Shown: one piece after another, positions 1-33,222 of the stretch
Position numbering within the stretch: the stretch's first letter is position 1
Layout: every line of letters starts with the position of its first letter
Sequence record: ON229909.1
Length of the DNA stretch: 64,000 bases
Source of the DNA: Escherichia phage vB_EcoM_CE1
Reading direction: 5' to 3' (one strand)
Position numbers and translations under genes: made by a program
Notes under the pieces: generated by a model
What the model was told of the DNA's origin: nothing
The model's input: only the letters and a program-made list of their open reading frames with translations
Database searches by the model: none

Positions 1-2643
<2,643 letters not shown>

Positions 2644-2684
2644 GATTTCTCCTAATCTGGGCTTTAATTAGTTTATAATATTTA

Positions 2685-4386
<1,702 letters not shown>

Positions 4387-25078: not shown

Positions 25079-25366
25079 ATGAAAACTTTCAAAGAATTTA
25101 CTTCTACAACTACCCCGGTTTCTACTATTACCGAAGCTACTCTTACTTCTGAAGTTATTAAAGCAAATAAAGGACGAGAAGGTAAACCAATGATTAGTTT
25201 GGTTGATGGCGAAGAAATCAAAGGTACTGTTTACCTAGGTGATGGGTGGTCTGCTAAAAAGGATGGTGCTACAATCATTATCTCTCCTGCTGAAGAAACT
25301 GCGTTGTTTAAAGCTAAACACATTTCTGCGGCACATCTCAAGATTATTGCTAAAAATCTTTTGTAA
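25079..25366 (+). CDS. ipI: internal protein I (capsid-targeted, CTS MKTFKEF)
   Basis: 95 aa, matches remembered T4 IPI. Confidence 0.85.
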   Translation: MKTFKEFTSTTTPVSTITEATLTSEVIKANKGREGKPMISLVDGEEIKGTVYLGDGWSAKKDGATIIISPAEETALFKAKHISAAHLKIIAKNLL

Positions 25367-26891: not shown

Positions 26892-26963
26892 GGCCCTGTA
26901 GCTGGAAGGTTCAAGCAAGCGACTCATAATCGCCAGATGGTGGTTCAATTCCACCCAGGGCCA
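26892..26963 (+). tRNA. tRNA-Ile (anticodon CAU, lysidine-type; Met not excluded)
   Basis: Acceptor ggccctg/cagggcc; anticodon loop ctCATaa; T4 cluster order puts Ile here. Confidence 0.65.
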
Positions 26964-27004: not shown

Positions 27005-27670
27005 ATGTTCCATTACATTTATAAAATAACAAATAAAATTAATAATAAAATTTATATTGGTGTGCATTCTACCGAAAATTTAGATGATGGATATATGGGT
27101 TCTGGTAAATTATTAAAAAGAGCCCAAGATAAGTATGGTATAGAAAATTTTTCTAAAGAAATATTAGAGTTCTTTGACGATAAAACCTCTATGTTTGAGA
27201 CAGAAAAGAATATTGTGACTGAAGAGTTTTTAAAGCGCCCTGATGTTTATAATTTGAAATTAGGTGGTGAAGGTGGATGGGACCATTTAAACACTAAAGA
27301 ATATTTGGATAAAAAGAAAGAAGCTTCCTTAAAAGGAGCTGCCGCTTTTAAAACCAGATTTGAGAACGACCCAGACCTTAAAGAAAAATATCGTAAAATG
27401 GGTTCAGAAAGGTTTAAACAGCTTTGGGATAATCCTAAGTATAGAGAGAAATTTTTAAATACTAAATCTTTCTTGGGTAAGACCCATACTCCTGAAACTA
27501 TTAATAAAATGAAAGAATCTCACGCCAGAAATAAACACCAACAAAGTGAAAAGAATTCCCAATTTGGCATGATGTGGATTCATTCATTAGATGAAAAAGT
27601 TTCTAAACGTATTAAGAAAACTGACCCAATTCCAGAAGGATGGTTTAAAGGTCGAAAAATGAAATTTTAA
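27005..27670 (+). CDS. segB: GIY-YIG homing endonuclease SegB inside tRNA cluster
   Basis: 221 aa, FHYIYKITN...YIGVHS GIY-YIG motif; located between tRNA-Ile and tRNA-Arg as in T4. Confidence 0.85.
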   Translation: MFHYIYKITNKINNKIYIGVHSTENLDDGYMGSGKLLKRAQDKYGIENFSKEILEFFDDKTSMFETEKNIVTEEFLKRPDVYNLKLGGEGGWDHLNTKEYLDKKKEASLKGAAAFKTRFENDPDLKEKYRKMGSERFKQLWDNPKYREKFLNTKSFLGKTHTPETINKMKESHARNKHQQSEKNSQFGMMWIHSLDEKVSKRIKKTDPIPEGWFKGRKMKF

Positions 27671-27673
27671 TTA

Positions 27674-27750
27674 CGGGGCATAGCTCAATTGTATAGAGCA
27701 ACGGATTTCTAATCCGTTGGTTGAAGGTTAGAATCCTTCTGCCTCGACCA
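27674..27750 (+). tRNA. tRNA-Arg (anticodon UCU), encoded CCA
   Basis: Anticodon loop ttTCTaa; T-arm and acceptor 3' tgcctcg-a-cca; 5' end assignment approximate. Confidence 0.65.
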
Positions 27751-28066
27751 AACAAGAAACCGGGTCGCTACCGGTAAGTCGTCGGACTGATGTTCCCTGG
27801 GTAAGGAATTGTGTTAATAAATCTTTATGATTTGTTGATGCCCTCTTACATCACAGCAGAAACGGCGCACCAAATTATCGATTCGAGGAAATATCTTTGC
27901 CGTAAGCCGAGTAGCGTTTTTGACGGAACGTTCGGATATGGTCGAGATATGGCCTTTTAAAAATATTGAGTAGCGTCAACTACTTAATAACCGGGTTCGA
28001 ATCCCGGCGTTTCGTACAAACACTTGCCTTAGCAGGTGGAACCCCTACAAGGTTGCCGCAAGGCTT
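27751..28066 (+). ncRNA. small stable RNA region (T4 species 1/2, RNA C and RNA D-like)
   Basis: ORF-free 316 nt downstream of tRNA-Arg with tRNA-like T-arm GGTTCGAATCCCGGC and a terminator at its end; internal boundaries not resolved. Confidence 0.5.
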
Positions 28067-28067
28067 A

Positions 28068-28094
28068 GCCCCGACCGAAAGGTTGGGGCTTTTT
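28068..28094 (+). terminator. rho-independent terminator gccccgacc-GAAA-ggttggggc plus T-run
   Basis: 9-bp GC stem, GNRA loop, T5; first copy of duplicated hairpin. Confidence 0.65.
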
Positions 28095-28096
28095 AG

Positions 28097-28104
28097 TATA
28101 AATA
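28097..28104 (+). promoter_or_regulatory. T4-type late promoter TATAAATA upstream of the internal-protein-like gene
   Basis: Exact TATAAATA 37 nt upstream of ATG 28142. Confidence 0.55.
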
Positions 28105-28141
28105 TAATATATTAAATCCACGAATTAGAACAGGAAATAAG

Positions 28142-28615
28142 ATGAAATCATATGCTCAATTTTTAAATGAAGCGGTGTTAAATGAAGCATCTAGCACCGA
28201 AATTCAAGCTGTCGCAAAAGCAGCCATTGCAGCGGGTAAATATTCCTATAAAGATGCTTCTGACGAATCACGATTTCAGTTTGCTCGCGACATGAAAGCA
28301 GAAGGATTTACGGGAAATGCAGTTAGTATGGCCTGGAAAAGTTTAGTTGCTACTGGCGCTGCTTTTGCAAAGGCTTCGGGTAAACCTGCTCCTAAAGCAG
28401 ATCCTAAAGTCACACAAGAGAAAAATATCGTTAAAGGAATTATCTCCAGATATGAAGCTATCCTTAAAGAGCTTTTAGTAATCAAAACTGAAGGCCAAAA
28501 GTTAGCTCGTGCTTATAGTTTCAAAGATAACCCACATGTTCACTCTCTTGAATATGTTGAAGACATCCAAAAAATTATCAAAGACCGCATTTGGTCTGCT
28601 AAACAAATCAAATAA
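28142..28615 (+). CDS. internal-protein-like protein (CTS-like N-terminus MKSYAQFLNE, L-x-E protease sites)
   Basis: 157 aa, Ala/Lys-rich; N-terminus resembles IPI and IPIII capsid-targeting sequence; late promoter; flanked by duplicated terminators. Confidence 0.6.
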   Translation: MKSYAQFLNEAVLNEASSTEIQAVAKAAIAAGKYSYKDASDESRFQFARDMKAEGFTGNAVSMAWKSLVATGAAFAKASGKPAPKADPKVTQEKNIVKGIISRYEAILKELLVIKTEGQKLARAYSFKDNPHVHSLEYVEDIQKIIKDRIWSAKQIK

Positions 28616-28623
28616 CATTCTTA

Positions 28624-28649
28624 GCCCCAGCCGAAAGGTTGGGGCTTTT
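28624..28649 (+). terminator. rho-independent terminator, near-identical second copy of 28068-28094 hairpin
   Basis: gccccagcc-GAAA-ggttggggc plus T4. Confidence 0.65.
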
Positions 28650-28782
28650 GGTATCTAGGCCTTTCTGGACCTCTCTAGGCATCATTTAGTTTATACCCTT
28701 TATAATATATTATCCTATCTTTTAATTGCCCCTCCCCGCCCTAGAATTCCCTAAAACTTTTTAAAAATTTTTTCACAAAACT

Positions 28783-28812
28783 GTTTACATCCTTGTTCTT
28801 CCATGGTACTAT
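28783..28812 (+). promoter_or_regulatory. T4-type early promoter
   Basis: ttcacaaaactgtttaca ... tggtactat. Confidence 0.7.
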
Positions 28813-28855: not shown

Positions 28856-29119
28856 ATGGATAATTACGGTGAGCTGTTCAACTTCTTTATGAAATGCGTT
28901 TCAGAAGATTTCGGTCGTACAGTGAATGATATTAAAGTTATCGGTCCTGACCATCCGATGTTTGAAACTTACGCAGTAATGGGTAATGAAGATGGTCAGT
29001 GGTATACTGTAAAGGTTGTGATTAACATGTTCACAGCAGAAGGTTATGTTAAACTGTCTTCTAAAGTTTACCACGATAACGACGAAATCGCAGAAGAATA
29101 TTTCAATAATATGAAATAA
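28856..29119 (+). CDS. hypothetical protein (e.x-like block)
   Basis: ORF track 28793..29119; start moved to ATG 28856 (SD ggaga) because the early promoter lies inside the longer frame. Confidence 0.55.
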   Translation: MDNYGELFNFFMKCVSEDFGRTVNDIKVIGPDHPMFETYAVMGNEDGQWYTVKVVINMFTAEGYVKLSSKVYHDNDEIAEEYFNNMK

Positions 29120-29174: not shown

Positions 29175-29705
29175 ATGTCTCTTTATACTGAACTGAATGA
29201 AACTTCCGAAAAATCTTTTGATGGTATTTTATCAATAATGCAAAAGCAGGTATTAGAACAGCTTAGTGAAGCCGCAAGCAACGGACATAAGGCTTGTCGA
29301 ATCCCAAGCCCACATCGTCGCCTGTATGAACGCCCTCTTATTAATTGGCTAGAAAGTGAAGGTCTTACGGTTAAGATTTGTCCTGCCAAATTTGATGTCC
29401 CACGCATTCTTAATATTTACTGGGATAAACCGGTTGAGAAACCGATTGAGAAAAGTGACCCTTGGGTTGTTAATGTAAAAACATATGATAATGGATGCTC
29501 ACTTGAGGTGTCTGCTGTAATTAAAGGCACTCACGGTGAAAAATCGTGGGGTTGGCCTGGTAAAGATAAAGAAATCGTGTTAAGTGTAAAAGCTACTAGT
29601 ATTAGTACTCCTATAGCTAAAAGCATTATTAATGCTGCTATCGATGAAGCTGAACGAATCTGTAAAATTAAAAATAGTTTACATCTCTCAAATAATGGGA
29701 TATAA
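29175..29705 (+). CDS. hypothetical protein
   Basis: 176 aa ORF. Confidence 0.55.
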   Translation: MSLYTELNETSEKSFDGILSIMQKQVLEQLSEAASNGHKACRIPSPHRRLYERPLINWLESEGLTVKICPAKFDVPRILNIYWDKPVEKPIEKSDPWVVNVKTYDNGCSLEVSAVIKGTHGEKSWGWPGKDKEIVLSVKATSISTPIAKSIINAAIDEAERICKIKNSLHLSNNGI

Positions 29706-32748: not shown

Positions 32749-33222
32749 ATGAAAACATATCAAGAATTTATTACTGAAGCAGCTATTAATTCTCAAATTA
32801 TTGCTGAATCTTTTACTGATCTTTTGAAATTTAAAAAAGGACAGAAAATTACTGCTGTATTAGATGATGGCACAGAAGTTGAGATGGATGTACAGGGATA
32901 TAATTATGCAGTAGATGGAAAACTGTATAATAAATCTCATGCTAAATTTGATTCATTTGATGATTTTGTTAATACAGTTGAAGATGAAAAAACTCGTCGA
33001 TCCATTGCAACTGGTGATGCTAAGGTTCTTATGGCGCATGGACATGAACGTATTCGCGCTAAACAGAATAAAATGGGTGAAGATAATTTCGCATTAGTTG
33101 GTTATCAATCTGGTAAACAAACTTATGGTTATCAGCGTACTGCTACCATGTATAATAAAAATGGTAAAATCGCTTTCGTGAATAGTAAAGGTTCTATTCA
33201 GTACGTTAAATCGTTCAAATAA
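32749..33222 (+). CDS. internal protein (IPIII/IPII-like; CTS MKTYQEFITEA)
   Basis: 157 aa with canonical T4 capsid-targeting N-terminus; exact IP type not resolved. Confidence 0.7.
   Translation: MKTYQEFITEAAINSQIIAESFTDLLKFKKGQKITAVLDDGTEVEMDVQGYNYAVDGKLYNKSHAKFDSFDDFVNTVEDEKTRRSIATGDAKVLMAHGHERIRAKQNKMGEDNFALVGYQSGKQTYGYQRTATMYNKNGKIAFVNSKGSIQYVKSFK

Follow-up and report, generated by a model that had tools for sequence, protein, structure and literature searches.

The 64,000-nucleotide (nt) stretch of Escherichia phage vB_EcoM_CE1 analyzed here (sequence record ON229909.1; hereafter the window, with features on the + strand unless noted) holds a short cassette between the stable-RNA end of its tRNA operon and gene e.8. 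At the center is ORF157, an open reading frame (ORF) of 157 residues plus stop codon (28142–28615, starting MKSYAQFLNEAVLNEA). It is preceded by a T4-type late promoter motif, TATAAATA, at 28097–28104, 37 nt 5′ of the ATG, and by a Shine-Dalgarno sequence read as AGGAAA (28132–28137), with 6 nt between its AGGA core (28132–28135) and the ATG. Two copies of a 30-nt direct repeat, at 28064–28093 and 28620–28649, enclose the gene, and each contains a hairpin. The upstream neighbor is an rnaC-like stable RNA (27878–28016, coordinates transferred from T4 rnaC, 70908–71046, through a near-identical alignment), which is the last product of the tRNA/rnaD/rnaC unit. The downstream anchor is e.8 (28856–29119), and the window is nearly identical to T4 from the right-hairpin tail onward. 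The locus is 99.9% identical to Escherichia phage vB_vPM_PD112, and the window is a Tequatrovirus segment. ORF157, a member of the protein family phrog_2280, is called hypothetical in every record that we inspected. From its sequence, assignment as a putative internal protein (Ip) of the T-even type is well supported: the product opens with a predicted capsid-targeting sequence (CTS) that carries two L-x-E prohead-protease sites.

A preliminary description of this DNA, made from the sequence alone, had placed near-identical terminator hairpins at 28068–28094 and 28624–28649, and both lie at those positions to within one or two bases. The left stem (AGCCCCGACC-GAAA-GGTTGGGGCT, 28067–28090) has 10 pairs, seven of them GC, and the right stem (AGCCCCAGCC-GAAA-GGTTGGGGCT, 28623–28646) also has 10. 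Both run into a T-run, which takes the left boundary element to 28064–28095 and the right one to 28620–28649, and both scored as terminator-like. Their folding energies are −20.3 kcal/mol (z = −3.85) and −20.6 kcal/mol (z = −4.1), respectively. The repeat copies agree at 28 of 30 positions (93%), including bases beyond the stem (CTTAGCCCC...), and their two differences (GA versus AG) swap a G-U and an A-U pair while all 10 pairs are retained. Allowing at most three mismatches, the hairpin pattern matches the 64 kb at these two places only, with 0 matches expected by chance.

T4 is nearly identical to the window on both sides of the cassette, lacks 556 bp and the ORF, and has a single hairpin (TTTTGGTATCT...) combining the stem of the left copy with the 3′ tail of the right one. 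This is the product expected from recombination between the repeats, which bears out the earlier suggestion that the direct repeat could mediate insertion or excision. The same description had set its reading against T4 having the gene and both terminators at this site; T4 has neither the gene nor a second hairpin, and T2, T6 and Yersinia phage PST are likewise empty, with exactly one hairpin each. We are therefore highly confident that the 556-bp difference from T4 reflects recombination between the repeats and that the cassette is real. Alternatively, the hairpins could be independent, ordinary terminators, with the repeat playing no role in gene gain or loss and the T4 difference arising by illegitimate deletion or insertion unconnected with it. 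A GC-rich stem closed by a GAAA loop is a common terminator design, and the repeat is just 30 nt long. Against this stand the near identity of the copies outside the stem as well as within it, and the position of the T4 breakpoints inside the repeat, so that no junction scar is visible. The GA and AG variants, moreover, are spread over left and right copies in different phages, as exchange predicts, and the same hairpin bounds every module of the locus across genera. We regard independent terminators as very improbable.

The filled site is the commoner state. Searches with tblastn located the ORF157 protein in 511 phage records (in 469, the match spans 80% or more of the protein) and e.8 in 596; ORF157 carriers make up about four fifths of the e.8-bearing records and include RB32, AR1, vB_vPM_PD112 and BASEL phage AndreasVesalius (gene bas42_0248). 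For this reason, T4 is more likely to have lost the cassette than the window to have gained it, and a gene present in 511 phage records is not rare, which qualifies the interpretation first given to it. Among close relatives the gene is accessory, being present in some and absent from others, and frameshifted and nonsense alleles exist. Its orthologue in phage RB32, RB32ORF133c (GenBank DQ904452), is 99.4% identical, and that record carries the remark 'flanked by 34 bp imperfect direct repeat'. The flanking repeat was thus already recorded in 2006; the internal-protein character was not. Several of the broken alleles (P0006 and P0009) are frameshifted at an A-run, which is A5 in the window (28420–28424) and A7 in phage pSs-1 (L003, about 1973–1979), and end ...QEKISLKELS...; another (P0019) is truncated at 97 residues, and that of Klebsiella phage KpV477 has an in-frame TAA. 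These changes could represent real on/off variation or homopolymer sequencing error.

The late promoter motif claimed at 28097–28104 is present there. Promoter significance by count was dropped, as TATAAATA is not enriched in the window, and positional conservation was used instead. Of 12 related loci with a family member, 10 have the motif at the corresponding position behind the hairpin and two read AATAAATA instead; our promoter call is based on this placement and its conservation. KpV477 has a different hairpin, AGCCCTGTC-TTCG-GACGGGGGCT, followed by the same TTTTTAGTATAAATA, that is, a hairpin and then TTTTTAG-TATAAATA. A search of 28060–28141 gave no sigma-70-like site. A promoter of sigma-70/early type (TTTACA-17-TACTAT, 28784–28812) lies 5′ of e.8. 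We infer a late-only mRNA, insulated on both sides, which would suit a component of the prohead core. Early-type promoters (GTTTAC-N17-TACTAT) lie 5′ of the two named internal-protein genes of the window, ipI and Ip4. In RB32, the repeats that separate the Ip5, Ip9 and Ip7 cassettes of the ipI locus (L019, 1655–2775) hold a promoter of early type, GTTTAC-N17-GATACTAT, together with a ribosome-binding site common to them.

The leader of ORF157 (codons 1–15, 28142–28186; MKSYAQFLNE/AVLNE/A, with slashes at the predicted cuts) is the best-conserved segment of the family. Across the six frames of the window, the pattern MK[STA][YFW]x[EQD]F opens only three ORFs: ipI (25079–25366, leader MKTFKEF..., Pfam PF11634 IPI_T4 at 2e-53), ORF157, and Ip4 (32749–33222, 157 residues, DUF7412, leader MKTYQEFITEA, labeled Ip4 or IpIV in RB32, AR1 and PST). 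When all 610 ATG-initiated ORFs of at least 40 residues in six frames were scored with BLOSUM62 against six distinct annotated Ip leaders from T4, PST and T2, Ip4 reached 52, ipI 51 and ORF157 34, third of the 610, with the next ORF at 24 and a background of 1.7 ± 7.3. The motif LNE/A occurs at residues 8–11 and 13–16, placing the prohead-protease motif, read from sequence, after residues 10 and 15. These results agree with the preliminary description, which had seen a capsid-targeting-like start with L-x-E sites; its ORF of 157 residues at 28142 and its comparators, ipI and the ip gene at 32749, are also as it described them. Codons 7–11 and 12–16 form a tandem 15-nt duplication (28160–28174, TTTTTAAATGAAGCG; 28175–28189, GTGTTAAATGAAGCA; 12 of 15 identical), which doubles the protease site as FLNEA/VLNEA. 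T-even Ips are a diverse set with the conserved CTS alone in common; a CTS by itself is enough to bring a foreign protein into the head (PMC3012670; PMC5694885), and Ip propeptides are removed by the prohead protease gp21 (PMC5694885).

Other family alleles strengthen the resemblance. Phages differ in leader length (11, 12 or 16 residues), and all of these leaders end in [LM]-x-E directly before the conserved body. Alleles include MKTYAEFLTEA and MKTYNEFLNES (compare T2 Ip7, MKTFKEFINEA), closer to the canonical form than the leader in the window, and distant members retain M-x-x-[FY]-x-[ED]-F-L-x-E-[GA]. Among ten diverse family members, mean pairwise identity is 55% in the leader, 38% in the N-terminal domain, 37% in the linker and 23% in the C-terminal domain, and of only three invariant alignment columns two, M1 and F7, lie in the leader. 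AlphaFold2 (AF2) models the leader as disordered, with a predicted local distance difference test score (pLDDT) below 50 for residues 5–15.

The locus itself proved to be a site where such modules are exchanged. Across 13 related loci, the interval from rnaC to e.8 is empty or holds ORF157 alone, ORF157 followed by a 187-residue ORF, ORF157 followed by a membrane ORF, or the membrane ORF followed by a 205-residue ORF. The hairpin, in a GGCCC variant in JS98-type phages, precedes each module and e.8. The 187-residue ORF (pSs-1 gp150, RB14ORF136) starts MKTYAEFLTEAAK and was found in 165 records; the 205-residue ORF (JS98 gp135) starts MKTYNEFLNESVLNEA and was found in 144. We considered these two ORFs as unrelated cargo and ruled this out, since both are phrog_2280 members. 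ORF157 matches phrog_2280 at 2.9e-60 (residues 1–157 on profile positions 1–172 of 178), and the matches of all three proteins range from 1e-53 to 1e-60. The 187- and 205-residue proteins are diverged ORF157 paralogues sharing a common plan of leader, three-helix domain, Lys/Pro/Ala-rich linker and helical hairpin; ORF157 and JS98 gp135 align with 28% identity. The family is confined to T4-like phages and to this one interval between the tRNA/rnaC unit and e.8, which holds 0, 1 or 2 diverged copies. Homologues in Yersinia and Klebsiella phages keep the N-terminal domain and have a different C-terminal domain. A profile search of 1.84 billion representative proteins returned 13 relatives, all small phage-type proteins of the same family. 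The membrane ORF (184 residues, DUF7338/phrog_2143) lies at 2580–3190 of the JS98 locus (L011) and at 3326–3880 of a second locus (L010); its position relative to the family gene varies between phages.

Exchange reaches into the coding sequence. The ORF157 allele of locus L010 and JS98 gp135 share a near-identical stretch that starts at the hairpin, takes in TATAAATA and the ribosome-binding site, and ends with codon 16; past that point, amino-acid identity drops abruptly to about 28%. This mosaic junction falls on the predicted cleavage point, so that what is exchanged is the mature protein. The same block also admits another explanation, in which the product is a late cytoplasmic protein that is never packaged, and in which promoter, ribosome-binding site and first codons make up one recombination and translation-initiation module that moves as a unit and whose peptide has no targeting role. 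Hairpin, TATAAATA, ribosome-binding site and 16 codons do move as a near-identical block between diverged genes, and in JS98 the same hairpin and TATAAATA precede the DUF7338 membrane ORF, which lacks a CTS-like leader. A module conserved for its DNA, however, does not account for the peptide motif being kept in distant members whose DNA has diverged. The window and L010 differ by synonymous codons at six conserved leader residues, and conservation therefore acts on the peptide and not only on the DNA joint. Nor does such a module predict that leaders of all three lengths end in L-x-E exactly where the conserved body starts, that the junction falls at the predicted cleavage site, or that the motif is limited in the window to ORF157 and two known Ips. 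We consider an unpackaged protein unlikely; by analogy with the known Ips, the ORF157 product is probably both packaged and processed.

Behind the leader, the predicted mature form (residues 16–157) would have a mass of 15.6 kDa, an isoelectric point (pI) of 9.6 and 24 Lys and Arg residues, basic like other Ips. An N-terminal three-helix domain (residues 17–75, 28190–28366), delimited by AF2 and alignments, is modeled confidently (block means of pLDDT 84–92 over residues 21–70) and carries the motif AGKYSYKD-SDESRFQF-RDMKAEGF...AWKS, conserved in family alignments. A Lys/Pro/Ala-rich, flexible linker of low pLDDT follows (residues 76–87, 28367–28402), longer in the JS98 paralogue, and a C-terminal helical hairpin completes the chain (residues 88–157, 28403–28612; AF2 helices 88–124 and 132–155), with the A5 run in its coding sequence. 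The predicted fold is thus all-helical and differs from that of the GmrSD inhibitor IPI*, described as two beta sheets with flanking helices (PMC3012670). Searches with the sequence gave no match for ORF157 in Pfam or NCBIfam and only coiled-coil noise in a sequence-profile search of the PDB. The IPI_T4 match (PF11634) seen for ipI is absent in ORF157, which matches phrog_2280 and not the 'internal virion protein' PHROGs. In hhalign comparisons, nothing was found against T4 IPIII, and only the leader aligned with Ip4. Similarity between mature parts does not really define the Ips, since the named ones are also unrelated to each other.

The basic character also bears on what a packaged ORF157 product would do. 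The main alternative for a packaged protein is a structural role, in which the processed product serves as a DNA-associated basic Ip (in charge neutralization, condensation or ejection) or as an auxiliary component of the scaffold core. The pI of the mature form, its 24 Lys and Arg, the great extension of the linker in the JS98 paralogue and the scaffold-like fold predicted for the long C-terminal hairpin would all suit such a role, and lysines of T4 internal proteins contact DNA phosphates (PMC3012670). It fits less well that T4, T2, T6 and PST manage without the gene and that many alleles are frameshifted or truncated. High divergence, variable copy number and mosaicism suit an arms-race gene better, and the basic T4 proteins Ip2 and Ip3 turned out to be specific inhibitors of GmrSD (PMC12373910). 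A structural role seems unlikely to us.

Taken as a whole, the observations are best explained if ORF157 encodes a late-made, prohead-targeted, protease-trimmed and injected basic protein, possibly with anti-restriction activity; we assign this reading a probability of roughly 0.6, a compromise between its firmer and its more tentative steps. The cassette would form a late transcription unit of its own, set between the tRNA/rnaD/rnaC operon and the early gene e.8. The left hairpin, the predicted terminator of the tRNA/rnaC unit, would end the operon transcript, so that no early read-through enters ORF157; TATAAATA would start the late mRNA, and the right hairpin, the predicted late-transcript terminator, would end it before the e.8 promoter. 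The 30-nt copies would act as substrates for homologous recombination, whereby removal of exactly 556 bp leaves the arrangement of T4, T2, T6 and PST, and recombination with a co-infecting relative could restore or swap the cassette. The leader, 11–16 residues in length, would dock the late-made protein onto the prohead scaffolding core, and gp21 would cut after LNE at residue 10, residue 15 or both. The basic mature protein (about 15.6 kDa, pI 9.6) would stay in the head with the DNA and be injected along with it. By analogy with Ip1, Ip2 and Ip3, it might then neutralize an early-acting host defense, most plausibly a modification-dependent nuclease.

An anti-defense role is the more tentative part of this proposal, and we place it somewhat short of even odds. 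Each of the three T4 proteins Ip1, Ip2 and Ip3 is a specific inhibitor of a different GmrSD type IV enzyme (PMC12373910; PMC9391042), and injected internal proteins act at the outset of infection, alongside the incoming DNA. Indirect support for a like role of ORF157 comes from dispensability, frequent truncated alleles, variable copy number, strong divergence, mosaic genes and the analogy with Ip1–3. More broadly, we lean slightly toward regarding the gap between rnaC and e.8 as a third, unrecognized T-even internal-protein locus, devoted to the large, fast-diverging phrog_2280 family (ORF157, RB14ORF136/pSs-1 gp150, JS98 gp135 and relatives), where a portable module of hairpin, late promoter and leader wires each protein for late expression, packaging and injection. 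On this third-locus reading, T2, T4 and T6 lack the contents of the locus, and the family would therefore have escaped both classical biochemistry and the recent screens of Ips against GmrSD; its proteins may counter defenses to which the model phages are sensitive. Several active GmrSD variants tested in one such study still have no known inhibitor (PMC12373910). Some 500 sequenced T4-like phages carry the family, including many candidates for phage therapy, and T2, T4 and T6 lack it; if packaged, it would be an obvious candidate for host-range determination. The module also illustrates how packaged cargo can be exchanged at a fixed site in T4-like phages, with the joint exactly at the predicted protease site.

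Several observations weigh against the proposal. The ORF157 leader deviates from canonical MKT[YF][QK]EF at positions 3, 5 and 6, and a role as recombination joint could explain part of its nucleotide conservation. Outside the leader, searches with Pfam, PHROG and hhalign detected no similarity to any named Ip, and fold searches returned generic helical-hairpin matches only, with nothing pointing to a target. The late promoter motif occurs 13 times in the window against 10.8 expected, which is not above chance. The canonical Ip cassettes of the RB32 ipI locus have early-type promoter repeats as flanks where the rnaC–e.8 cassette has a hairpin and late promoter, and the regulatory design therefore differs. 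The RB32 annotators labeled Ip4, Ip5, Ip7 and Ip9 and yet left RB32ORF133c hypothetical. As to function, ip4–10 were tested with no target found (PMC12373910), and anti-restriction is therefore not a safe default. Literature searches on virion proteomics for family members and their carrier phages (including fHe-Yen9-01, phiR1-RT, vB_Kpn_F48, AR1 and JS98) turned up nothing usable, and no mass-spectrometric or biochemical evidence for any family member; the best tblastn matches to the Yersinia homologue do not include phiR1-RT. Four family peptide strings (two from the ORF157 conserved domain, the ORF157 leader and the pSs-1 paralogue leader) had no match in the supplement files of Silas et al. 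2025 that were searched, where the ip genes are named ip4–10.

The proposal joins two known kinds of element: polymorphic, repeat-flanked Ip cassettes and stem-loop/promoter shuffling modules (PMC2839356, PMC4122927). Our comparison set for the former comprised T4 IPI, IPII and IPIII together with Ip4, Ip5, Ip7 and Ip9 of RB32, T2, PST and others. Like ORF157, T-even Ip1–Ip10 have a leader of about 11 residues, MK[ST][YF]x[EQ]F[IL]xE, ending in L/I-x-E, which is their sole well-conserved part, and are small and basic. They are also dispensable, present or absent in close relatives, and carried as cassettes flanked by short direct repeats at a polymorphic locus. Unlike the named Ips, ORF157 occupies a third site, from rnaC to e.8, rather than the ipI or ipII/ipIII sites, and this site is empty in T4, T2 and T6. 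Its packaging is a prediction, and its flanks, a terminator hairpin and a late promoter, set it apart from the Ip cassettes at the RB32 ipI locus. The second kind is represented by the PeSLs of T4-like phages (Arbiol et al. 2010, PMC2839356; Comeau et al. 2014, PMC4122927), short composite stem-loop/promoter sequences proposed to mediate modular shuffling by recombination. As in our cassette, PeSL stem-loops lie at indel boundaries between close relatives. In PeSLs, however, the stem-loop is joined to an early promoter, and copies are scattered across hyperplastic regions, whereas the ORF157 module has the late motif TATAAATA, is found at one locus only (two copies in 64 kb) and includes a coding leader. 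The phrog_2280 entry, unassigned in function and category, is matched at full length by ORF157 and also by the pSs-1/RB14 paralogue, JS98 gp135 and distant metagenomic relatives; its description contains neither the leader nor the fixed locus nor the cassette structure, which were found here. What appears to be unrecorded is that a widespread family bears this leader, that its locus is a third one, empty in T2, T4 and T6, and that the flanks are a terminator and a late promoter.

The gene order of the wider surroundings, on the + strand, is as follows. Upstream are 57B, ipI, trna.4, trna.3, trna.2 and eight tRNA genes with segB among them, the tRNA-Arg gene (27674–27750) lying upstream of the rnaC-like RNA. 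From there the order continues with the rnaD-like and rnaC-like stable RNAs, the ORF157 cassette, e.8, a replacement of e.7, and then e.6 through nudE, e and Ip4. The e.7 position of T4 is occupied by a 176-residue ORF (29175–29705, phrog_6869), described in the RB32 record as 'similar to RB69ORF146c, replaces e.7'. Between 32749 and 33903, the window lacks ipII, ipIII and denV, which in T4 lie between e and vs.8; they are likewise missing in RB32 and AR1.

The non-coding segment from the right hairpin to the e.8 promoter (28650–28783) is near-identical in T4 and includes a C-rich run, TTGCCCCTCCCCGCCC. No Rfam family reached the gathering threshold there, and some records annotate at the equivalent position a 29-residue ORF on the opposite strand (RB32ORF132w, ar1_136). 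Within the tRNA cluster, the gene with anticodon CAT (26892–26963) is called tRNA-Met by ARAGORN, and its counterpart is annotated as tRNA-Ile in T4 and RB32. The same cluster holds the homing endonuclease gene segB (27005–27670), about 400 bp 5′ of the cassette, and co-conversion driven by SegB could affect inheritance of the cassette in mixed infections.

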